A stretch of 63,083 bases of DNA, counting the filler, from Licmophora abbreviata (Eukaryota): the NCBI GenBank assembly GCA_900291995.1. It is 9 parts of 9 records of this genome, joined end to end, with 100 filler letters (N's around TTAATTAATTAA, not from the genome) between each part and the next. Parts side by side here need not be neighbours in the genome. Positions count along the whole stretch, not along the records: positions 35,082 to 38,067 come from OLMU01000670.1; 8 more parts are not named here. One strand, 5' to 3'. A model generated the notes under the pieces. The model saw only the letters and a program-made list of their open reading frames with translations. It ran no database searches and was not told the origin of the DNA. Below are positions 27,001 through 46,560 of the stretch, piece after piece (within the stretch, counting starts at the first letter, position 1; each line of letters starts with the position of its first letter). The position numbers and the translations under genes are program-made.

Positions 27001-30000
27001 GGAGGTCTGAGCCACTCTCGTGCGAATGAGGGTCTCCTTCCGTCTTGTCTTTGTCTGGTTGCTCTCAATACTGCCTTCCATGGGGTCTTTCTTAAACGCC
27101 TGTCGATCTTGGGGCAGCAGTCTGTGGAGAAGAAGGTTGACGAACGTTCTTGGGGGAGATGGACAACCACTCAGCGCGTGCATGACCATACTTTTGGAAA
27201 GGGCTGGACGGCTGCGATGGATCGCAGCAGCACAGGCAGGGAACGCTAGAACTATGTCGCTGATTACTTCCAGAATACTTCCCATCCAGAGAAATGAAGT
27301 CTGGTTTCCAAATAGGTCTGACTCTTCGTCTACCTTCTCAAGAACAGCCTCGTCATCAGAACGACACAGCGACACAGCTTTCGACATCAAAACAGCAATA
27401 ATTTGACTGGGAGGCGTCTCGCAGAGCGCACTCCTCTTCGCAGCAGTTTCAGCCTGTTCCACTTTGTTTTTCTTCGATGTCCCACCGCGTTTCGACGTGG
27501 GCCCTCGGCGATTATGCTTCCCTTTGAGCGCCTTAGAGCGAGCGAAGGAAATCGTGGGAGTGTGATTTGAAGAAGTGTCGCGAACCTGGTCATCCTTTCC
27601 TTTCGATGAAGTTGGAATTCTTTCGAGCAAATAGGTTCGCCGAGCCGCGCGCTCTTTCGAGTCGAGTAAGACGACGCTAGTCCGCTTGTCAGTCCAAGTG
27701 TGAAATCGAACGGTCACCGACGCGGCTTTCAGGAAGACGACAGGGTCACGGCTTATCAAAGGCTTCAGTGCACGTGCAAAGGCTGCAAGAGAAACAGACG
27801 CAGATTCGTCCCCGTCTGTGACATTCCGATGTTCGTCTAGCCGGGAGACAATCGAACGAATTTCAGTTTCCATTGCTGTCTGCAACGTCGTGGGGTCTTC
27901 TAGCACTCGACGCAGTAGCATGGCCACAAGACCGGAGCTACCGTTGAAACGGCAGCTTCTCGGGAGCGAGAGAATGAGTTCCGGACCTCCCGTTCTCAAG
28001 AATTTCCACGAGAGCTCAGGCGATCGCACGAGTCGACTCATCAAAAGAAGGAGAGCCTGAGCTGTTCCCGGTGGAGGGAACGATTTCTCCTGCCGCGATC
28101 CGTCCTGTAAGAGGTTAAGGCATACATCCATGCATCTGCTTGCTGATTCCGCCGGTAACAGTGGAGCGAGGGGCGGCACAGAGATCAACGACATGGCTTG
28201 TGCAGCTACGCCACGCCCTGTCAAACTGTCCTTCTTGTTCAATGCCCCCTCCGCTACTACAGCGTCAGTGGTGCTGCTTTCAGCTTGCACCTCCAATTCC
28301 TTTGCTCCGGATATCAGCGAGGGACCCGCAGGGAATACAATGCGCGCCGTGTCCGCAACAAGCGCGGCTTGGGTGTGGTGCTCTTTGCGGACTGTGCGTA
28401 GTTCTTCCTCTTCCGATCCGTCCATTTCCCCTTCTTTGTCAAAAATCACCGTTGCCTCGGCCATTGTGCCTAGAAGAAGCAGTGCTGGTGTAAGCCATAC
28501 AGGCCAGGTTCTCGTCGTGTCATCTCTAGGGTCAGCTGTCACCCAGTCTTCGAGACAAGATACCAAACATGATACAATTCCTTTCCCCAGGACCAGTTGC
28601 CTTGTCCGTGGAAGTTCCCGCGAAGTCAACACTGCTGCATGACAAAGGGATGCGAAATTGCGCTCTCGGTCGGACCGCACGTTACACGATCCGGCTTCCA
28701 CCGCTATGACATCAGCCTTCAGCCGATCGAGGAGACGGGAAACTATCCGCGCCTGCTTGTCAGGGTACTTCATGCAGAGCTCAACCAAGACAGAATTCAT
28801 CGCCAGCGTGAGAGCTTCCATATCTCCATCGCCCCCAGCATCCGCGGGCGTATAAGGGTTGTCGGGCCCTGCTAGTAGGTTAACGATGACATCGGGTGAC
28901 TGGTTGATCCATAATTGACGGCATCGCTCGACGTGAGACTGAAACTTGTCATCGAATGATTCCTGCGTGGCTTCACCGTCCTTGCCAATCTCATCAGACG
29001 CCGGTGAGATTTGGTCCCCCGACACTCTGGCATCGGCACTTACCGCACCAGAAATAGCGTCTGGATCGGAATGTGAAAGCGCTGAGCCGCTTCCGGAGTC
29101 AGCAGCAGCTTCGATGCCCCCGGATTCTCTTCCCTCACCCACTTCTAAATTAGCTGCTTCCCGGTGTCTTCTTCGTGCCTCGCGCTCTGTACGCCGACGC
29201 TCCACTGTTCCTGGGCTGGGGGGAGGATTAGATAATGCGTATTCCATAGCTACCTCAATGACATTCGATCGAGAGTGTTCAAGAGCATCCAAAGCGTGAT
29301 CCCTCGAGAATCCCATTTCCGAAAGCTGAGAAATCGCGTCCTCGCTTGGTTCGAACTCTTGCAATTGAGACTCAAGCCGCTCACTCTCTGCCGCCTCACT
29401 TCTTCTTGTTGTTGTACGAAGGGCAGTACGCGAAAAGATGTTCCAGATAGAGGCATGCGAGTCTCCTTCGTAAGCGCTGGTAGATGTGCTCGCCGCAGAC
29501 TTGTCAAGACAAGCAATAATTTCGCCCGCAAGGTTTGAAAAGGGCCACGCAAGCTGAACTGGCAAAAGCTTGAATCGCCTATCCGTCCACATTTCAAGTG
29601 CACTCTCGCCAATTGCGCAGTACAAAGTTGCGCAAGATTTAAGGGGTGGACTACTTTTGGAGGCGTGCCGTTTGTTGATCCGATCAACATAGACACTTCG
29701 GAATCCATTAGCCGTTTCAGTGTGTTGGCTGCATTGGAGCCAGCGAGTGGCGTTTTTGCGAGCCTTCGCAACAACGCAATCGTGGGCGGAAGACTTGCCG
29801 CGACGTTCCGGGGCACAAGCTGAACAGGTGGAGCCTGCTCTCTTGCAGTAGACTCAGCTGTGCTCGCTGCTACCATCGAGCGGTTGCTCATATTGGAAAG
29901 GCACTGCGTGAATACGAACTGGACTCCATCAAAAACACCGAGCCTACAATTTGACTCGGCGTGCAGAACTTGACGGTCCACGAAGCGATCGGAATTAATC

Positions 30001-33000
30001 AGTGATAATAGAAGCAGTACGTTCATGGTGCTCCGGTCACGTTTCTCGTCGACTAAAGATGCCTGGACAACGTCGAAAAGGATCCCAAGGTAAACGGCAG
30101 CTCCCGCGGAGCTATGCATCGCTTCTGAGTCAAATCTAGCTCGGGAGATAATCGTCTGTATTGGTTCCCTCATTAGGCCTCGGAGAATGTTAGTCGACAG
30201 CATAGATGTAAGTGAAGCAAGCTGTTGCCCAATTGAGCCATCCTCGAACACAAGTCGCTTTGCTGGTAGTGCTTTCACGCCATGAGACAAGATTCGACTT
30301 AGTATTGAGTTCAACTCGCAATATGTGTTTTGTAGACGAGCAAGGACTGAAGCGCCAGTGGCACTGATGTCGGAGACTCCGAAATTCTTCCTCCTCTCTG
30401 GTCGCATATCGGTGGTCGTGCTGCCGCCCTCATCGACTGCGATACCAGACCAGACGTTCAGCACTTCTGCTATGGGTTCGCGGCCATGGCCGCGCGTCAG
30501 CTCTGAGATCCATCCCGCGTAAGTCCGGTAGCGCAATACTCCAGATGAATTGTGACAGCGATCAATGGCCTCCACAATTTCGCCGAACTCGGCGCTCCCG
30601 ATGCTGGCGCAGGAGTCAATTTCTATACCATCTCTAACGACAGCGCCCTCCTGGCATACAATGCGAAGCCTATATCGGACCGATCCCGTTTCTACTCGGC
30701 GCCCAAGCCGATTTCGTTCTCGTTCCTCATAACCCGCTTCCGTTCGAATACGACAGGCCTCATGAAGAGCCGACTGATGAAACAATGAGAGCTCAGTGAA
30801 CAAATCTCGAAAATCAATCGACGTCAGCTCATTCTTCCATCTCCATGCACTTCGTCCCCAGTCTGAGCCGGTTTCTAGGCTGCGGCTTAGTGCAGCCCTG
30901 ATCACGGATGACAACGTCGCAGTGTACCACTGAAGGATCACCACCTGTCGAAAATACTTGGATATGATATGCGCTTTCGACATGAAGCTCGCGTCGTCGG
31001 CCATAGTATGAAACGGCGCTCGAGGAAGTCCTTCGAGGATGCCATCCGCACTCGCACCATGATGATCGCCAATAGGACTAGAAGCTGGGAACGATACTCG
31101 CACACTTGTTTGTGCTTCCTTGAGTTCACGTAGCTGAACCTTCAAAGCAGCCGACATCTTCTTCAGAAGCATCGTCGAGTCACAGTGGAGCCCCATGCTC
31201 TTGATCACAACCAAAAGTGAGTCTTCTGTCGTCGAATGTGCAAGCGTACATGTAGAATTACAACTGAGGCAGGACACATGTGCCAAGAATGAGACGTTCG
31301 TAGGCATCACAAGGGGGAACAGGCGAAGAGTTGCCTGCAGACCCCCCATCTTCGCAAACGGCTCGCAGTGATCCGCATTATGAAGTATTTGCTCAAGCAT
31401 CTGCGCAACGTTCAGTACATACTGGACGAGGGCGGATCGCTCGTTCTCCAGCTCAGACGCATCTTCTCCCTTTGGAGGCACAACGATCTCCTCTTCGCGA
31501 AGAAGCAGGCGTTCCCCGATATCGGCGACTTGGTTAATTGCCTGTAAAAGTGCTGTGAGAACCACAGGTCTCAGCTTGGGACAATGCCGCATGATTTCGT
31601 CAAGCCCAGTTCCGACAATTGCTGTCATTTCATTTAGCAAGCAACGGCTTTCTGGCATAGAAAAGCGGGATGAATAGAATATCGACAGAAACGCAGGGAA
31701 TGGGTTTGCTTTCTCGATTGCGGTGGCCCCGTTCTCCGTTAAAGCCAAGGCGGCAAAAACGTTCGGAATAGCCATAATCAGCTCGGGTGATGCAGGAAAT
31801 CCTGCATTATTGAATTCGCCACTTTCCCGCCACTCTCCCATTACCATATCGAGAAAGGCCTTCGCCAGCCCCGATTCATGTACATAATGCACAACCTGCG
31901 GGTCGTTGTTCATGACGTCAGACAGCATAGACGATGCCAGAGCAGCGAGCGTGCCCCCGTAGGAATCAACATTCCGAAGGATTTCGAACAGCGTCCCTGT
32001 AAGTTCCGAATTTCTCAACTGGGCTCCCCCGGGTGACGCAGGTGCTGTCGAAGAGCTCGACTCTTGGTGAAAAACGACCGTCAGACCGTTGACGAGGCTG
32101 AACAAAAGTATTCTCTGTGAAGAGCATAATTCTCTTGAGAGGGTTCGTGACCCGTCCATCGATGTGTCTTGCCTCGTCGGGCCAGCTTCTGCAGGTTCGC
32201 AGTCCATCGCACTGTCGTCTGGAGCTTGAGGATGCCCGACAGAGCACCCACTCGAGCTCCTAATCTCCTGCATATCCTTGTCAAGTCTCGATACAAGGAC
32301 CTCGACGCCCCGCAGCTCATGAAATGCAGAAAGCGCATTGTTGTGAGTCACAACGGCGCCCTCAACGATCTGGACTGCCTGAGATATAATGAAACGAATC
32401 ATGGAACGTGCTTGCGAAAAATCATCCAATTTGAGAGAAGTGAAGCCGGCAATCATGGCTGAGGAGATGTCGATAGAAACAGTGCTCAGAAGAGCGGGGA
32501 CAAGGCCACACTCCGTCAGTGCTGCTGTCCCAGACGGTGTTGCTATGACCGCCGAAGTGAGAGTCAGAACAGTATCGATAAATGCAAGAGCGCGATGCAG
32601 TTGCTCAGCGACTGGAAGAGGCGGTGGCTTGGCAGCCTTCACAAATGCCTTGCCAATATCCATGGCGATTGCTTCTGAAGTATCTGGTATTCTCGCTTCG
32701 GGTGTCGACTGCTTGTCGCGGCTTGAAAGAAAGGCATTGAGTGACGCCAATGAGTACCGAATCAAAGTTGGTAGCATCCCGAGGTGCATTCCTTTTCCAA
32801 CACCAAGCTCAATGAGAACATTCGTCAGCCGCGCCACTCCTGTTAGACCTCCACCCGTCCCGACATCTCGTCTCGACACTAGCGCCGTCAAGTTCCTCAG
32901 CGCCAACGTTCTCACTTTGTAGGGGACCTGAGGCGAATTCGCCAACGCGGACATGGCGTGCAGGTCCCCCTCATCCGATGCGCCAACGGCCGACGCCGCC

Positions 33001-34314
33001 GACACGGCTGCAGAGGAAACTGTAGGTCTCAACAAGTCAATCAGTTCAGCACAAAGTTCCGGTTGAGCCTGAAAGTACCCAGACATGATTTCTTGCGAAG
33101 GGTGCGTGTACAGATTGGCAGTCAATGCGAGGAGACGCCGCTCCACAGCTCTTACTCGTGTCGCGCGGGAGTGAAAGGCTTGCGCAAGGCGAATATCTGC
33201 CAACAAGGCGAACTGTCGATCTTCGGGAATGCGAATCCGCCCTCCGGCTTGTTCTAAACAGGAAAAGAAAAGTTCCGACGTTGACGGCACTTGCTTCTCA
33301 GGCGCACGGCCTGTAATGGACCCCATTCGTCGACGCTTCTGTTTGCTTTCGTCGTGTTCCTCCACGTCCATTCCCTCCTCATTCGTCCTGTTACTGGAAT
33401 CGACCTGCACCATTTCCGAAGCATTCAACTGTAGTTTCACCAGTCCGGTCTGTCCATAGTACTCAAACACCAGCTCCCCGCATTCCTTCGGCAACGCGCC
33501 TTGTCCATACTCAGAATCGTCCGTGGCAACACACGCCAGGAGTCCCACTCCCGATCCACGCGAGCCCCATCCTCGCGCCAGGGCCAAGAGGCGCGCGTGG
33601 CAGCTGGGGTTCTGAATCCGATGCAATGCCGTCGAATGCTGCTGCATGTCCGGGGACTGCTGCTTGTGCAAGGCGGGAGGCGATGCAAGACTGGACAGCG
33701 TGTGGAGCGCCAAGTCGGCAAGCTCGTCGTCGGCTGCGCCAAGCAAGTCTACCAAGTCTTCGGCTGAATTGAAAATAGACTTGTTGGTGCAATTACTCAA
33801 CAACGAGGACAGGAAGCGCAGTATCGTGACAAGATTCGCTGCTGCAGATTCCGGCACAGAGCACACATCTTCTATCGACTCGGCGTGTTGTTGGCCGCTA
33901 GTGCTCGCTACAGCTTCGTTCCGCTGACTCCTCTTCTTTCGTACCAGAGGCTCCACTAGGAGTAACGATCTCGCGTTTTCACGAAGAATTTTCGATAAAA
34001 CAGCATCCACAAGGTTCAGTGGACGGATCCATTCGTACAAGTCCACCTGCGCAATGATTTAGAGACGAACGCGGCGCGGATGAGACCATGATTCCCCAAA
34101 AAGCCTCTCTCAGATGAATTAGAAGAAGACATACCTGCTCTTCAAAGGTCCACGTCTGACAGGTCGCGAGAGTCTCCAAAAAGCCATCCTCGTCCTGGGG
34201 AAGAAAGTCTGTTGTTGTTTCGAACGAGCCAAGGCGTTCCCGCAAGGTCCGGAGTTTCACGTCGTCAATGATTTGAGGTGCAACACCGACACCGCTGGTC
34301 ATCACCGGCGCCAT
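21032..34314 (-). CDS. HUWE1/Tom1/UPL1-type giant HECT E3 ubiquitin ligase; introns 34134-34047 and 21827-21737, frameshift near 29628, gap 22939-23038
   Basis: N-terminal helical region starting DLYEWI..LN. UBA domain (QLSEMGFSRDHALDAL). Three UBM-like repeats (LPLEMQREVV, LPESMRREVI, LAPDLRQEIL). HECT motifs EEGVDAGGLSREFF, FVTGSSKVP, AHTCFNSLDLP (catalytic Cys). Confidence 0.92.
22939..23038. other. Assembly gap/linker
   Basis: N44-TTAATTAATTAA-N44. Confidence 0.97.
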
Positions 34315-34981: not shown

Positions 34982-35081
34982 NNNNNNNNNNNNNNNNNNN
35001 NNNNNNNNNNNNNNNNNNNNNNNNNTTAATTAATTAANNNNNNNNNNNNNNNNNNNNNNNNNNNNNNNNNNNNNNNNNNNN
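34982..35081. other. Assembly gap/linker
   Basis: N44-TTAATTAATTAA-N44. Confidence 0.97.
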
Positions 35082-35204: not shown

Positions 35205-37822
35205 TTAAGAAGGGATTCTCCATACTAGATTCTTGACGGGCTGCGGCCCAATGCTCGGAAAGTCCGCAGGCATGGGAACGACACGCTCCAACTTGGCCGA
35301 CGATAGGCCTGCTTCATCGAGACCCTTCTTGCACATTCTCGCAAACTTGATGGGAGTAAGGCTGGCACTGTTGGTGGTGGTCCACAACAGACCACCCCTC
35401 TTCACCAAGGGGGCCGCCAAGGACACCAACGACCCCATGTCCGACTTGACGCTCCAGCGCTTCTTCTTCTTTCCCACGCTGGAGCTAGGAGGGTCCAGAA
35501 TGACAATATCGTATTGCTCTCCTCGTTTGGCCAGACGAGCCAACCAATCAAAGCCTGGAGAAGAAAGGCAAGCGCTCACGTTTGAGAGATTATATATATA
35601 TATATATCATGCAGCGACGCTATTCATCATGCCAACTTACAGTCGCCATAGATACAGTCGTGCCTTTCGTCAAAGACAATCCCGTTGGCCTCCAGTTGCG
35701 GTTCGACTCTATCGAGCCATTTCTTGTTGAGATCCAAGCTCACGGTCGATGCACCGGCCGTTGCCGCGGCAATACTAAAGGCGCCGCAATGAGCAAAGCA
35801 ATTCAGGACACGCGTGCTGTCGTCGCAATGTTTCGCCAGCCAGGCACGCTGGGGGCGCTGGTCCAGAAATATTCCAGTGGATAAATCGCGGTCCAGAGCA
35901 ACGTGGTAGGTGATTCCGTTCTCAAGAATAGGAACCACATCTGGAGCAGGCTCTCCTTCTAGTAGAGTAGGGCGCATGTCTTGTCGTGATCCCATGGCAC
36001 TTCGATCCCGATTAGAGGGGAGATAGTACACTCCAGCGGTATTGCCGTCGTGAATCGATGGCAGGGGGCCTTTGTAGTGCTTGTCGTCGTGCTGAATCAG
36101 AAGCCACTGGTCGTATCTGTCCACTGTCCACCCCTCAAAGCCATCTGCGGCACCATTGACCTCTCGATATGCTGTGGTGAGAGGATTCCTTTTTAGGTCC
36201 AATCGTCCAAGGAAGGATCCTTGGGCGAAATCGTGGTGATTGCGCCGTTCCGCGAGAGTCGCAATGTCGTCAGGAAGCTCTTCAGTCGCTTCTTCGACGT
36301 GATCATCATGCATCAAGCTCGACACCGACAGAGACTGACAGTGTATCAGCCGCCGATCGGCCCGTCGCTCAAGTGGATTTGCGGCAGGATCGCCTCGAAT
36401 TCCGTCTTGAAACTGCGACTGAAGGGGTTGAACAACGCTATTGCACGTGGATGGCTTCTCTAGCATGGTAACGCTCGCTGTCAGCACTGTGTCGTCCATT
36501 CGGTTCTTTCGGAGTTTGGCCACAACATCTATATGTATCAGATCTTTTGGAACGTCGGACTCCTTCCCTCGTCTTGCCCTGGGTGCTAGGAACTTGCCGT
36601 TTCCAACTACGGCCACGTATGTAGCGGAATCGATGAACACATTCTGGACTTTGTCCTTTGGGCATATCACGACAAGACCCGTGTCATCCACACTCGTCGC
36701 ACCAGCAACAGCAGTCCAATACTTGCCTCCTCGAACGGGCGTCCCTTCCGCTGCCTTGAGTTCTTTGAGCCATGCTACCACCGATGGTCGCGCTGTCGAC
36801 GCGAATGACGCACGCTCTTCTCCATCACTACGGTCAGCACGAGCCTGAACCTTAGGAATGTTCTCTGCGGTCGTTGAGTCAGTGTCCATGGATTCGGTTG
36901 CGTCATCAACTGCATCGAAGCCACCTTCTGCTCGAAATTCACCAATCTCTTCGGGTGTCATCACGGCTAGAATATCAGCCTCGTCGTACTCCAGCATGTC
37001 GGCTGATCCATCGTCTTCTTTGAACTTGACACGCTTCATCCGTGTCTTCTTCTTTTTCTTCTTCTCAGGGGATGAGGCCTCACTCTTACGATCCGTTGGT
37101 TCTGCTCGACTGGCATTCGGCACATCAGTCTGCTTCATGCTGCTTTGACTCGGTTTGGTCACCTTGCTAGTTTTCTTTGGAGCGCTACCAACAATGGCCC
37201 ACCCCAGCGGCTTTTCAATAATATACGCCAGAGATCCGCTCACTCCATCCTCATCCCCCACACGCACTGTCCCCACAATCACCGGCTCGACTGCATCCAC
37301 AACGGCATCGACATGTTGCGCTGCCGCATTCACCAACCCCAACTGCCGTGCTTGGTACAGAGGACTCAACTCATTGATCACTTGTTGAGGTTGTGCAGTA
37401 GTAGTTACAGAAGTTTCATTGTTTCTGGGAAGCTTTCCCTGGCGCTCTAGTAGAGCTGCACGCTGTGCAGCATACAGGTATTGTTGTTTCGGCGCCTGTA
37501 CACGTTTTCGAGACCTCGAAGCTTTTTTCTTTTTCTTTGTGTCTTGAAGGTAGTAGGCAGCCGGGTTGTTCTGAATCTGTTCGGCAAGTTCGGCCACGGT
37601 CATTTCGCGACCTTTCTTTTTCTTACTACTACTGCTCCTCCTATTACTAGTATTGCCCCGCTCTGCCGAGGAAAACAGTGCAGTGCAGAATGATGATGCA
37701 TGGTATCTTGTCGCAGGCCCAACGAACGCAAAGCACTGTTCTATCTGACTATGAAGTAGTAGTAGTATTGGCAAAAGAGGAAAAGCAGGACAACGTATTC
37801 TTCTTCTTCTTGTCTGACCCAT
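35205..37822 (-). CDS. Predicted plastid rRNA methyltransferase (RlmI/RlmK family) with a degenerate RluA-like N-terminal domain; exons 37822-35641, 35554-35205
   Basis: AYREVNGAADG.EG.TVDRY, ENG..Y, STGIFLDQR, RVLNCFAHCGAFS, YDIVILDPPS, ADFP. Intron 35640-35555 (GTAAGT..CCAG, containing a (TA)n run). Signal peptide ending CFA-F. Confidence 0.85.
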
Positions 37823-38067: not shown

Positions 38068-38167
38068 NNNNNNNNNNNNNNNNNNNNNNNNNNNNNNNNN
38101 NNNNNNNNNNNTTAATTAATTAANNNNNNNNNNNNNNNNNNNNNNNNNNNNNNNNNNNNNNNNNNNN
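38068..38167. other. Assembly gap/linker
   Basis: N44-TTAATTAATTAA-N44. Confidence 0.97.
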
Positions 38168-40529: not shown

Positions 40530-41148
40530 ACTCTGGTGGAGGAGCGCAGCAGGACTGAAGAGAGGTCCACAGCGAGAGAAGACGATCCTCCGCGTTGTGC
40601 TTGGCTCGGACACTATGAATAGGAGTACGTTCGTAGGAGGATCATTGCCATTCTATATCAAATACTTTATCATAGAAATCGATACGATCCTTGGGTCGTG
40701 GATCATCAAACATCATCATGGCGACAACTCCAAACTTGAAAACTGTCAGACTTCGAAAATTCAGCGCAGTATTGTCCGTTGAATGTAAACATTACTGACT
40801 GAATGCACACAGCTGCATGCTCGCCAATGAGTCTCTAAGATCTGTAGAAACGGATACTAGCCATTGGTACTGAGTCTACACGACCGTACAGGCGACGGAC
40901 TCGCTCGCTCGCTACCGAATCGCGCCATCGCCCTTTTTGGCTTCCAAGGACCACGCGGTAAAACCCGCGTCCAGGCAAAAAATTGAAGTAGAGTCTATCG
41001 CTGTATTTATTCATTCTCTAGTCTTGACGACGGACTCGACGTGAAGCGTCCCGAAGACTCTGTGAGCCTGCCTTCGCATTGCTGAGAAACACTGTCTTTG
41101 GTGTACAGTAGGTAGTTTCTGGAGTATTGGTCCATTGGGAGAGAAGAA

Positions 41149-44100
41149 ATGCCCTTCTTTGCGCCGCAACAAGAACAAGACAATCGTCGCACTTCCTTTT
41201 CCTTTCTCAAGTACAGTCCAGATCGAAGAAGTACAACGTCCATGAGGAGAACACGAGAACATTCCAAGAAGATTGCTTTGCAGCTTACGCCGACTCAACC
41301 ACAAAGACCATCCGAAGAAGAAGCGGGCGACTTTGCTAATTTTGATGCCTTTTCTCCGCCTACGACTCCTACTACTACGGAAGATGCACGGAGTAGTGTT
41401 GCGAGTAGAAGTCACATTTCTACAGCACACAACACTACTACGAGTAGGAATATAAGGGATGGCGGTAGAATGGTGTCGAGAAGGAGAAAGAGTTCCTTGG
41501 ATGCCTTTGTGGACCAGCAACATCAGCACTCATCGCCACAAACACCATTGCGACAACGAACAAGCGTCGCATCTACCACTACTACTTCTTCTTCCATGCC
41601 CACCTTGCCATCCAACTCTTCCATGCAATCGAGGAATGTCATGCTTCCATCTCCGCGTGGAGCAGCCGCACGACGGCGGATGCGACGACAGGGCAGCGGA
41701 ACTACTATTGGTAGCGATGGCGACTCCTCCTTTCGACAGCCATCGCGCAATCATGGTGTGGATAACCATACGGCGCGTCATGGGATTCCGAGTGCACCGC
41801 CTCTTTCGAGGACGAACTCCAGTGCTTCGACGAATCTATTTGATGATCCGAATGGATTTACCTTTGATGCATTTGGCTTGGATGAGACTCAGGTAGATCA
41901 AGAAGTGAATGCTGCTATTCAAGACTTGGCTGGATCGCATCCGGGTTTATTCGATGCCATGGATATGGCGAGTGACGAAGAGTTTCCCCCGGTGTCGTTT
42001 GATAGCCCTGCGGGAAGTCGTGAGAACAGTCCTTCGATTGTGGAAGAAGATGGTTTTCATCATGTCACTGCAAGCTTCGCGGGCCTTCCTCTGCACGTTC
42101 GTCACAGTTCTACGAGCTCGGATCGGTCCAGTCTCACGAGTAGCAACGAGCATCCTCATGAGGCTGCTGGTGGTGGGATCAACATGTTCAAGGTCCAGGC
42201 TGGATTCCACACGTCCAGTCGACCGCCTCGTACGCCGTCCCCGAATTGGGCCAGTTTTCACGAACGCATGCCGGTTTTGTCGCCTCCCCTGACTGCCAAG
42301 TCGGAACCGGGAGTTGGGCGTCGACCAAAGTTCACGGGAACGCGCCTCACGAGTGAGAGCTTGGAACATCGTGATGAGCCCTTCCGTTCGGTCACGTCCG
42401 AAACGGGAGCACCGCCGTCCAGTGTAGGTGCTCCGTCGGAGGTTGCGGTCGCATCCGATATGGGTGTAGCGTCAGACGTGGTGCTGGAGGCAAGCTCTGA
42501 GGCTGGTATAGTAGTACCTTTGGAAATCGTTTCATCATCAAAGAAGAGCAAGTCTTCTGGCTTTCTGTCGGTTGATACCCGGTCGACCGAAATAACAGGC
42601 GGAGATAGTTTGGAGGAACGAGAGCTACCTCAAAGTGTCAATAACTTGAAGGAGGCATGGGAGCAACGAGAGTTCGAGGAAATGGACAAGGAAGAACAAC
42701 GCCGAAGTGAACGGCAGCGAGCCAGGTCTCCGCTCGATCACACCGACATTGAAAGGCTTCAGACGCAGCTTGGGGAAGAGATTTTGACGCCAGCGGCTGT
42801 GGAAGAGCGATGGCCGTATGCCGGTTCTCGTTTCCCTGCCACAAAGAAGCTTGAGCAGCCTCAGCAGCAGCCAGTTGAAGAAGACGGAAATCAGCAAACA
42901 TCTTTTATGAGCCAGCGAGAACGTCTGAAACCAGTCGCTGCTTCCAGCAAAGAAAGAGCAATATCTTCGTCCCAGTCGGACTTTGTAGGGTATCGATCGT
43001 CGGCATCATTGGAAATGCAGTCCGTTCTAAAACGACTGGAACGAGACACCTCTGATGCGAAGTCCGACGTTGGGGAGACTCCGTATCTGGCGAGAGTGAA
43101 CCACAGCGACGCAAAGGGGCAAAGAAGGCGCTACAATGGGAGCCAACGAAGCAGCCCGTCCAACTACTCGGACGAGTGGAATGACGATCAGGCTCAAGAA
43201 TGGAATGCGATTGCTAGTGATCGACATTCAGATCAAACGTCCAGTGAGGAGTCCGATGCTTTCAAGCCTTCACATCCAAAGCTATCGTATCGCGAACGGC
43301 GTGAGTTGGAACTGAGAAATCAGAAAGAAGATGAACGGCGAACGGCTGAAGTGCGTCGTGATGTGTCTCTGCCGAAGAAGATGACTTATAGAGAACGGCG
43401 TGAATTGGAGCTACAGAAGGAGGCCGAGCAAACACGACAAAGACCTGAAGAACGGGAGAAGGAGCCGGAGCGTGACGTTGCATCGCTCATCAGAAGGCGC
43501 ATTGCGGCGAACAAGAAATATTCTTCTAGATCGGATTCAGCGTTCGCGAACGAGTCCGACAATGTCGCTTCAGTGCAAAGTGAGCTGAAGAAGGTCGTGA
43601 TTGACAAAAGTCCAGATTACAGTGATATGATCACAATCCGCGGTGTTGCTGCCAAGTCCTCGATGTCACCGAGCGACTCCGAGAGCTCGACCACGCGGCA
43701 GGATCGTCGTGGTATTGATGACTCGGTTCGCCGTGGGCTGAGCGAACCCAGTAACTCTCCTGTTATTCCGTCTATGGTTCTAAGCGAAGTCGATAGCTCC
43801 AGTACCGCTCGCACGCTCCCGGAGATTCCGACATCGCACGACACCGCACCTACCGGCCAAGGATCGAGCGTGAGCATCGACGAAAAGAAACAGTACTCAG
43901 CGAGAGCGGTTGACGTCGCCGCCGTAGCTGCTCCTTCGACAAAGTCCATGTTGAACGCTCTGTTCGCAAGTCGGGTGGGTGCAGCCGCTCCACCAGAACC
44001 ACAGCAGGAAAGGAATGTCGAAGCACAACCTTCTTCGAGTGCCACACCTGGCTCTCCGTCGAAAACAGCAGACGACCGACCTGCCCTCAAAGATGATCCA

Positions 44101-46560
44101 AAATATGACAGATACTTTAGAATGTTGAAAGTTGGCATGCCAACGGAGGTAGTCAAGCATGCTATGACTCGTGATGGCGTGGACCCGTCCGTTTTGGATG
44201 GTGATCACAACAAGCCGGCTGGCCAGGGCGGTGTGCCTCTGAAGGAAGATCCCAAGTACACAAAGTATTTCAAAATGCTGAAAATGGGGCTCCCTATGGG
44301 CGCTGTGAAGAACGCGATGGAACGTGATGGGGTTAATCCTTCGATTATGGATGGAGATCACAACGAACCTGCTGGAGCTGGCATGTCCAACGAACAGAAA
44401 GACAAACGAGAGGACGACAAGCCGAAGGACACGCATCGACGCACCCGCCTGCATTGGGAAACTCTTCGCAAAGTCCGATCAAACTCGCTTTGGGCTAAAC
44501 TCGACAACGATCCAGAGGTAGATGAGATCGACATTGACGAGGAGGAGTTCGCTGAGCTCTTTCAGGCAGAACTTACACCCGTGCAGGTAGGCTTCGGCCG
44601 CGCTGGAGGGGCTCTGAAGAAGCGAGGTGCAGCCGTTCGTGTGATCGAGGCGAAGCGAGCGAACAACGGAGGAATCATCTTGGCAAGGCTCAAGATGACT
44701 CACGACGATATGGCGGATGCAGTGGATCGAATCGATGGAAATGGGATGACGTCGGAGCAGATGCAAAACATTATCGAGTATCTTCCTACTAAGGAGGAGC
44801 GGAGTGCCTTAGAAGCTTACATGCTTGAAGGCGGTCAAGATGCAGCCCAAAAGTTCGATGGGTTGTGCGAATGCGAAAAATTCATGGTTTCGATGATGAC
44901 AGTAAAGCATGCCAAGCGCAAGGTTCGAGCTCTCTTGTTCAGACTTCAGTTCGAAGGGTTCCTTGAATCTCTACAGAAGGACACGGACATAGTCGAGACG
45001 TCTTGCGAACAACTGAGCAACTCTGTTCGCCTGCGGAAGCTACTTGGTATCGTTTTAAACCTCGGTAACAAACTGAACACAATTGGAACGCACAGCAAGC
45101 GCAAAGCGGGTGCTTTCTCTTTGAACTCCCTTCTCAAACTGAGTCATGCAAAAGCGTTTGACAAGAAAACGACATTCCTGGACTATGTCGTACTGGTCGT
45201 CCAGAGAAATAATGAGATTCTGCTGCGATTCAAGGACGACATTCCTACTGCTTTGAAGGCAGACAAGATCTATTGGGATCAGTGCCTCGGCGATCTTGAG
45301 GAACTTGAAAACCAGCTTGAGAACGTTCGAAGAATCGCCCTCTACCAGGCTCGCTTGCAGCAGATGTATCGACTCAAAAAGAAGAAAGCTCGTAGTGAGA
45401 TGGACGAGGACAGCGAGAGTTTAGGTGACATGACAATGTCTCTGGACGAGGAAGTCGAAGCACTCCGTGCTACTCAAATCGGCGGGTTTACTCTTGGCGC
45501 CATCAAAAAGGTTTCGAGCTTACGCGACAAAGTGGAAACAACCAAGAAGAAGTTTGCTCGGCTTCTTGAGTACTTTGGCGAAGAAGACAAACGCGACATG
45601 CAGCCACACGACTTGTTCAACATCATTGCGACATTCTCGAGAGATTTTGAGAAGTCCAAGGATCGAGTGTTTGCGAAGGAAAAGATAAAGGTAAGCAGGT
45701 TCTCGGTTTGGTACGGATTTCCTGGAATATCGCAAGCTCTAACGAAGATTGCTTCGATACTTTGATCACAGCAACGGGAGGCACGGAAGCAGAAGGCAAG
45801 TGACAATGCCCAGACGCACCGAACGCCAACGTCTAAAGACCGACTTCCGAGACAGCCTCATCCGTCCAAGTCGGCACCTCCAAAGTTCACTTCGCAGCTG
45901 CACGACGGTCAACAGAAGGGAACCACGGTTAAGCTCCGCTCCTCCAACTTGCAACCCAACATGAGCAGTGTTTTGCGAGACGTGACGTCGAAGAAGGCGT
46001 CACAACGTTGGGAACATGGGTACTCTCCATCGAATGTCCCTAGGTACGGCCAGAATGTTCCTTCTCCTGTCAATCGACCCGGTCGAGTGAATGCGCAGGT
46101 TGTGCAGTCCGCACAATCTGCTGCTAGTACTCCCAATGCGTCACAGTCACCGTCCATGAGCCGTTTATCTGCATCACAGTCGCCACGAGCTCCTGGGAGC
46201 GACAGTTCTCCAAAAAACGGTGTAAAGTGGCAGCAACAGTCTTCCTCCATGGCGAGAGGGTCGAAGAGCACAGATTCGGTGTCCAGGTCGCCCTCGGAAA
46301 CATCGACCCATTCGCGAGCGCGCATGCACCGAAAGTTGGTCCAAGCCGGAAGATCTTCTGCCTCTTCGTTAGCATCCACGACCCAGCCCTCAACTCTGAG
46401 TTCTAAGCCGCAAGCCAATCCTTCCCCAAGTCAAAAACATTATGACACCCAGCAGCTATCGCCTCGCTCAAGCATCCGACAGCGTCGACGAATGGAACAG
46501 CGAAAGCCCACGCAACGTAACGAACGGCCTAGTGACGCACTTCGACTCGAAATGGACTAA
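41149..46560 (+). CDS. Formin (FH2 domain); exons 41149-45690, 45772-46560
   Basis: FH2 motifs RLHWE....SLW, FAELF, KRANNGGIILARL, CEKFM, LRKLLGIVLNLGNKLN, AFSLNSLLKL..AK...KTTFLDY, LLEYFGE. Intron 45691-45771 (GTAAGC..ACAG) is in frame. Confidence 0.92.

Follow-up and report, generated by a model that had tools for sequence, protein, structure and literature searches.

Enzymes of the COG1092 methyltransferase family differ at one active-site position: RlmI, which forms 5-methylcytosine (m5C), carries a Cys, RlmQ carries an Asn, and the Cys/Asn swap separates the two (PMC10870370). SAV1081 has been identified as RlmQ and makes the equivalent of 7-methylguanosine (m7G) 2574 (PMC10870370, PMC10798245). 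In the RluA family of pseudouridine synthases, catalysis depends on Asp64, Tyr96 and Arg165, and the Arg of the HRLD motif flips the target base (PMC4434415; 10.1101/2023.02.23.529727). Here we describe a gene of the diatom Licmophora abbreviata (assembly GCA_900291995.1) in which domains of both kinds are fused. It occupies positions 35205..37822, on the minus strand, of the stretch of 63,083 nucleotides (nt) that we analysed (the window), and its two exons are spliced into a single frame of 843 amino acids (aa) with only the final stop. An original prediction, made from the window alone, had called it a plastid-targeted fusion of an apparently dead RluA-type synthase with an RlmK-like methyltransferase. 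We find that the fusion is a real, conserved and lineage-restricted variant built of known parts; its assignment to RlmK is not supported.

Fold and domain order of the diatom protein

The N-terminal domain (approximately residues 177-530; 36233..37294, like all features of this gene on the minus strand) contains the predicted RluA motifs in order: YIIEKPLGW (200-208), AGATSVDDTGLVV (373-385), TYVAVV (401-406), GIRGDP (474-479) and RRLIHCQSL (490-498). Residues 150-535 were modelled with AlphaFold2 from 70 sequences (predicted local distance difference test 80.8), and the model was searched against 48,161 chains. The first 27 rows were all pseudouridine synthases. The best match was RluA (2i82; Z 13.9, root-mean-square deviation 3.9, 187 aligned), followed by RluD, RPUSD1 and RPUSD4, and unrelated folds began only at Z 3.0. 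Foldseek gave 9 matches at E<=0.001, each of the RluA/RluC/RluD/RPUSD type or a chain of a pre-50S particle, and the ESM Atlas returned pseudouridine-synthase clusters at 0.79-0.80, which is a lead only. On the evidence of the predicted structure, the proposed RluA fold is thus confirmed.

At the sequence level the domain is much harder to recognize. Pfam and NCBIfam gave no match to it at E<=10, and searching the PDB by sequence, with a single protein or a family profile, did not detect it. When we aligned it by hhalign with the genome's own RluA-type proteins, the probability was only 7.5% when the entire domain was used, rising to 88% (E 2.9e-6) once the inserts had been taken out, using a cut that the analyst chose with the RluA hypothesis in mind; the controls (reversed, RsuA-type and methyltransferase) gave E values of at least 0.048. 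A hidden Markov model (HMM) built from fusions with an intact synthase was also run on 78 full-length diatom proteins; it matched their N-terminal part in 50 cases at E<0.001 and in all 78 at E<0.1. The converse search, with an HMM of the diatom N-terminal domain against 20 of the genome's 35 PF00849 matches, returned only motif I of one locus. These 35 matches in a 29-Mb assembly (loci L001-L020), many with intact HRLD-type motifs, represent a large RluA/RsuA family, some members of which may sit on contaminant contigs.

The C-terminal part has a PF10672 domain with a DPP motif and a motif for binding S-adenosylmethionine (SAM). Its N-terminal portion (35641..36217) comprises the EEHEE element, the beta-hairpin and the start of the SAM-binding region. 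No PUA_3 match at E<=10 was found in the fusion protein; the RluA fold takes the place of the PUA domain. The DPPS motif (residues 748-751; 35484..35495) is complete, with D, P, P and S each present in 73/73 full-length homologues. The segment GGLLWTTTNS (781-790) brings Asn789 (35370..35372) into the alignment column that holds the catalytic Cys in RlmI (E. coli C340), and all 73 full-length diatom rows have this Asn. E. coli RlmI has C in this column, whereas both RlmQ and RlmK have N; of 381 domains, 378 had N there and 3 had C. As Asn sits where RlmI has its catalytic Cys, m5C is an unlikely product, which supports the non-m5C active site that had been predicted, and the sequence makes m7G the best guess. 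Most databases nevertheless name these fusion proteins RlmI. The genome has a second COG1092 gene, L021:3-1958 (G000:C586), which is RlmI-like, with a PUA domain, DPPK, the Cys motif TCTCS and a long N-terminal extension. With PUA and Cys both in place, this paralogue would be the better candidate for any organellar m5C1962.

Remodelled synthase motifs, plastid-type leader and bacterial ancestry

Homologues were collected with residues 190-535, which found 171 proteins; counts out of 120 refer to the best 120 of these 171. A larger, redundant set comprises 206 diatom-type proteins picked from 475, window included. The named homologues are from pennate and centric diatoms (Seminavis, Nitzschia, Pseudo-nitzschia, Fistulifera, Cylindrotheca, Thalassiosira, Skeletonema, Cyclotella and others), and several derive from transcript assemblies.

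Motif I (37187..37228) is preserved: K204, P205, G207 and W208 are invariant, with K, P and G of KPxG found in every one of the 115-116 filled rows among the best 120. Motif II (36677..36718) is remodelled. Instead of an HRLD motif with flipping Arg and catalytic Asp, the window reads G-A-T-S; G374 and A375 replace His and Arg, and D379, D380 and G382 are fixed. The Arg column, two residues before the Asp column, is Ala in 120/120 homologues, and in the larger set all 201 filled rows have Gly at the His column and Ala at the Arg column. The catalytic Asp column is occupied by S377 (36694-36692). This register is backed by hhalign and by the nearest bacterial relatives, whose [Q/H]RLD-V-D-T-[S/T]-G (V in 103/114, D in 73/114) anchors the diatom G-A-T-x-V-D-D-[S/T]-G. 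The predicted Asp-to-Ser exchange is therefore correct for Licmophora abbreviata but does not extend to the family, where the column is variable (D 41, E 40, N 20, S 9 and G 8 of 120; E 74, D 69, N 23, S 15, G 10, Q 5 and a few others among the 201 filled rows). Motif III (36389..36457) has decayed; it lacks GRxHQIR and runs into GIRGD. The HQxR pattern with the active-site Arg165 occurs in 1 of the 206 diatom-type proteins, at a position that was not inspected. Tyr96 of motif IIa is retained as Y402 in 119/120, and the Lys before it is lost. Judged from these alignments, the invariant family-wide loss is that of the flipping Arg and motif III, not of the Asp. Arg-to-Ala in all 201 filled rows and the missing motif III agree with the predicted loss of the catalytic set. 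With the flipping Arg, a fixed Asp and motif III gone, RluA chemistry implies that the diatom domain very probably no longer forms pseudouridine.

An insert of 124 aa (36809..37180) separates motifs I and II. The prediction of a long acidic insert was right about its length and only partly right about its charge: the first 56 residues form a basic, disordered half (19 K/R, 7 D/E), and the rest is acidic (21 D/E, 5 K/R) and partly folded in the AlphaFold2 model. It stands where the bacterial form has a short loop, THxDGxxx, which we take to be the RluA forefinger loop. Conservation is unevenly spread along the protein. Columns at least 90% conserved make up 25/46 at 345-390, around motif II (0.54), and 17/33 at 471-503, as compared with 0.48-0.50 in the methyltransferase, 0.02 in the insert and 0.09 in the thumb/motif III stretch. 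By this measure the decay of the pseudo-synthase is non-random, and the surroundings of the former active site are conserved like the methyltransferase.

A signal peptide followed by Phe at +1 is a mark of diatom plastid import. The protein starts with a predicted signal peptide (residues 1-32; 37727..37822) that is hydrophobic at 14-23 and ends in CFA, followed by F33 (CFA-F at 30-33, then V). We applied a simple leader motif of our own (a hydrophobic 9-mer, then A/S/G-F): 66 of 79 leader-complete sequences, window included, passed, against a shuffle mean of 5.0 (maximum 9 in 200 shuffles), and none of 84 bacterial fusions did. The plastid-type leader of the original prediction is thus present. 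It is followed by a putative transit peptide, S/R/K-rich and unconserved (approximately residues 33-73; 37604..37726, the boundary being inferred), and by a basic block, RxRxRV..PKQxYxYAAQR (101-125; 37448..37522), in which 9/25 columns are at least 90% conserved. This block is possibly an added RNA-binding element.

We carried out a profile search of 1.84 billion representatives, which found, after the diatoms, proteins of 500-600 aa with PF00849 before PF10672. The closest bacterial fusions are named Myxococcota, Myxococcales or Bradymonadia; those further off are from Polyangiales and Verrucomicrobia. In a careful tree of 40 rows, from which P0203 and P0163 were left out, the diatoms (100/100) and a pelagophyte-containing group (99/97) fall, together with the Bradymonadia-type fusions, within one clade (100/100). 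The approximately unbiased test (p 0.40) does not reject a single origin of the diatom and pelagophyte genes, nor does the tree establish one. Since the algal proteins nest in a bacterial clade and the fusion spreads wider in bacteria, transfer would have run from bacteria to algae. The diatom gene was thus apparently taken from Myxococcota/Bradymonadia-like bacteria, in line with the bacterial origin that had been proposed for the two-domain protein. A study of diatom gene transfer reports that pseudouridine synthase and SAM methyltransferase domains are enriched among transferred genes (10.1101/2020.01.24.918219).

The bacterial synthase domain is largely intact. Of 117 bacterial-type rows, in which proteins and loci overlap, 114 had a sufficiently long N-terminal part, and 112 of them retain all three of Arg62, Asp64 and Arg165. 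Within the pelagophyte group there is a gradient: P0364 is intact, P0155 (Pelagomonas cluster) keeps RLD and has lost HQ, and P0357 has lost the Arg. Among 211 non-diatom fusions, Arg and Asp are kept in 197 and not in 14, and the losses fall in several branches. One further pelagophyte-group protein, P0367, reads GATDADGSG, near the diatom GATxVDDSG yet outside the diatoms in the tree, which may be convergence or chance. The synthase motif is also lost in apparently bacterial fusions spread over several branches (P0180, P0205, P0208, P0212, P0220, P0222, P0244, P0257, P0200, P0210 and P0370). As a separate observation on gene neighbourhood, an Rsm22/METTL17-like gene (for example L036:6979-8163 and L040:1878-3098) lies within 4 kb of the fusion in 12/29 Bradymonadia-type loci (11/22 with full flanks) and in 0/50 distant loci.

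Product, target and alternative readings

We consider the protein to be, on balance, probably a nucleus-encoded, plastid-imported RNA methyltransferase of single activity whose inactive synthase serves as an RNA-docking module. By sequence and tree, it derives from a protein of the Myxococcota/Bradymonadia type in which an active RluA-family synthase is fused before a PUA-less COG1092 methyltransferase. In the diatom lineage the synthase has lost the flipping Arg, the fixed Asp and motif III, which very probably ended pseudouridine formation, and the protein would be imported into the plastid. There the pseudo-synthase, standing where RlmI and RlmQ have PUA, would most likely serve RNA docking or specificity, by analogy with RsmC. 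A methyl group from SAM would be transferred without a Cys intermediate, most likely to guanine N7 in unassembled plastid 23S rRNA; this substrate and the RNA-binding or assembly role remain putative. It is doubtful, though conceivable, that the scheme holds in its widest form, in which diatoms place m7G in plastid 23S via a Myxococcota-derived enzyme whose synthase has become a specificity module, its binding surface newly fixed, and in which pelagophytes and several bacterial lineages independently began the same change.

Several observations weigh against this interpretation. The RluA sequence signal is weak, with no Pfam match and an hhalign probability of 88% only after inserts were cut out, and the residue-level register derives from alignments, not from model coordinates. 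The methyltransferase tree described below gives no RlmQ orthology, and identity to RlmQ is only 30-33%. A plastid precedent is lacking, as Arabidopsis chloroplast 23S shows no m7G (10.1101/2024.06.14.598963). The bacterial synthase domain scores best against RluA in 90/113 and against RluC in 20, and with RluA the nearer, the helix-90 neighbourhood is not favoured. Finally, the catalytic column still holds Asp in one third of diatoms (69/201), and Tyr402 (119/120), D379 (119/120) and D380 (120/120) are kept as well, which leaves room for a changed chemistry. The domain could then be a re-tooled enzyme with a new active site formed by D379/D380, W369, Y402 and H494-C495, all near-invariant in about 200 rows. 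We regard this as very improbable: the counterparts of D379 and D380 in xRLDVDTSG are a D and a T without catalytic role, the structural positions H494 and Y402 were inherited, and the flipping Arg and the motif III base are both gone.

The assignment to RlmK, with G2069 as expected target, could not be upheld. The fusion methyltransferase is 30-33% identical to RlmQ (130-133 bits for the RlmQ type) and 26% identical to RlmK (76 bits, the lowest of three references), and the two exons scored 50 and 26 bits with NF008748, whose cut-off of 466 is set for whole RlmKL. Profile matches to solved relatives ranked SMU.776 (E 6e-48), SAV1081 (2e-43), RlmI (5e-38) and RlmKL (7e-21), and Foldseek with a model of the full-length homologue P0006 gave the same order. 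In a quick tree of 91 rows, RlmK (Shimodaira-Hasegawa-like approximate likelihood ratio test 100, 5 rows), RlmQ (99) and the fusion group (94) stand apart, with their branching order unresolved. A first tree had put E. coli RlmK, on a long branch, inside the fusion group; we rejected this placement, as it moved out once four RlmK orthologues were added. We also searched five genomes for PF10672. All four of Bradymonadia type carry a separate RlmK, 42-44% identical to that of E. coli, beside fusion proteins that are only 29-30% identical to it; in the fifth, Sorangium, no RlmK was seen. Smu776, the nearest solved relative, was shown not to methylate G2069 (PMC3367195). A functional RlmK making m7G2069 in the plastid would explain the Asn at the nucleophile column and the absent PUA, both RlmK-like (PMC3367195), and no RlmK orthologue was found among the two PF10672 matches of the diatom assembly; given the evidence above, we nevertheless consider it unlikely. 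By descent the family is neither RlmK nor RlmQ, as far as alignments and trees tell; it is an Asn-type enzyme with G2069 a less likely target. An archaeal P-loop m7G enzyme, also considered as a relative, belongs to a different family (PMC12124282).

The plastid contig of the assembly, L126 (G000:C6275), carries psaA and psaB by translation, and its 23S has G2069, G2574, C1962 and U2580. Target presence does not decide the matter, since G2069, G2574 and C1962 are all there. In E. coli, G2574 naturally carries no modification. The leading guess, held tentatively, is an RlmQ-like m7G2574, because no characterised enzyme is nearer than RlmQ, because the PF10672 matches of the donor-lineage genomes include RlmK but not a separate RlmQ, and because U2580 is six bases away. 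Another chemistry or substrate comes next and is itself doubtful; m7G at another G seems somewhat less likely again, and m7G2069 would be a surprise.

Two further explanations move the weight to the synthase fold. It could act alone as a plastid ribosome-assembly scaffold or RNA chaperone, comparable to mt-LAF3 and RPUSD3, with methylation secondary or independent. Mitochondria need non-catalytic RluA-family proteins (10.1101/2023.02.23.529727), the diatom domain has acquired a basic block and a large insert, and the Rsm22-like gene adjoins the bacterial fusion at close loci only. The methyltransferase, however, is conserved at least as well as the pseudo-synthase and is still fused to it in the full-length diatom homologues read, which leaves this explanation improbable, if less so than the RlmK one. 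Alternatively, the substrate could be an RluA-type stem-loop (the tRNA anticodon arm or 23S helix 35) rather than 23S domain V, and the product a new methylation. The ancestral synthase is nearest RluA, annotated to act on tRNA U32 and 23S U746, and the residues after DPP are S/T-S in the fusion family as against F-A/F-S in RlmQ and RlmK. Best-match ranking among RluA, RluC and RluD is a weak guide to target, however, and the characterised COG1092 members RlmI, RlmK and RlmQ all act on 23S rRNA, so that we give the stem-loop little chance.

Gene context and comparison with known systems

Translation starts at an ATG at 37822. Exon 1 (35641..37822) encodes residues 1-727 and the first base of codon 728, and exon 2 (35205..35554) the remainder of the methyltransferase and the stop codon; between them, inside the methyltransferase, is a GT-AG intron of 86 nt (35555..35640). 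Among the best 120 homologues, 29 of the 43 that lack DPPS show GD-C-K at the intron point, matching the unspliced window, and the intron position is therefore common to other diatoms. The GT-AG intron, the leader and the existence of named diatom orthologues speak against bacterial contamination as the source of the gene, which we therefore rejected. Among sequencing runs, none of RNA was listed as containing it, and DNA runs only with small shares. The assembly does hold a GC-rich (55%) bacterial-type 23S-5S piece, L125/L127 (G000:C5531), which is probably a contaminant. One homologue, P0414 of Thalassiosira profunda (1653 aa), has leucine-rich repeats attached and is possibly a merged gene model.

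The gene lies within one contig, bounded by spacer blocks at 35038-35081 and 38068-38111. The linker TTAATTAATTAA occurs at eight sites of the window (4000, 7440, 11821, 22983, 35026, 38112, 47373 and 61922), with N runs flanking those near the gene. As the window consists of contigs joined by spacers, genes beyond them are not true neighbours and gene neighbourhood is uninformative. Other contigs encode a formin (FH2) preceded by two CCDC53-like repeats (41116-45765, plus strand) and a DUF908/DUF913 protein of the HUWE1/Tom1 type (29250-34058, minus strand).

In the literature covered, from which subscription papers are largely absent, we found neither an RluA-COG1092 fusion nor rRNA modifications of diatom plastids described; the supplement of 10.1101/2020.01.24.918219 may list the family. 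The fusion belongs to a COG1092 branch labelled RlmI (m5C) in databases although it lacks the RlmI catalytic Cys, a branch of uncharacterised 23S-type methyltransferases, and it leads one to expect a modification of plastid rRNA that only diatoms and some relatives have. The series from intact bacterial enzyme through the partly decayed pelagophyte form to the fixed dead diatom form would allow the change from enzyme to binding module to be tested. If the interpretation holds in its widest form, new RNA-recognition domains could arise repeatedly through replacement of PUA by an RluA fold, and the family would be a third m7G-forming COG1092 branch. The importance of the finding is limited in that neither fold is new, precedents exist for dead RluA proteins as well as for dead helper domains, and growth of B. 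subtilis was not affected when RlmQ was lost (PMC10798245).

RlmQ (YwbD of B. subtilis, SAV1081 of S. aureus, SMU.776 of S. mutans; 23S m7G2574) is the best match to the fusion methyltransferase in sequence and structure, sharing the EEHEE, beta-hairpin and Rossmann fold, DPPS, and Asn in place of the catalytic Cys. It differs in having a PUA domain where the fusion has an RluA fold, and the fusion, about 30-33% identical, is eukaryotic with a plastid-type leader and falls outside the Bacillota RlmQ clade. RlmK, as part of RlmKL, is likewise an Asn-type COG1092 enzyme without PUA that is fused to another modification-enzyme domain, but it forms a separate clade, co-occurs with the fusion in donor-lineage genomes, and has RlmL as its partner instead of an RluA fold. 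RlmI (23S m5C1962) has the same fold; the diatom fusion lacks its catalytic Cys (FSCS) and PUA, both of which are found in the separate paralogue. With the RluA family the diatom domain shares the fold, motif I, the motif IIa Tyr and the C-terminal His strand, and with the organellar members RPUSD3 and mt-LAF3 also the broken HRLD motif. It is set apart from all of these by its fusion to a methyltransferase, its 124-aa insert and a motif II fixed in a new state, and from RPUSD3 and mt-LAF3 by a leader of plastid rather than mitochondrial type. A functional parallel may be RsmC (16S N2-methylguanosine 1207), in which an inactive N-terminal enzyme domain helps the active C-terminal methyltransferase to recognize its substrate (PMC3351187); in RsmC the dead domain is a duplicated methyltransferase, whereas that of the diatom protein is a pseudouridine synthase.

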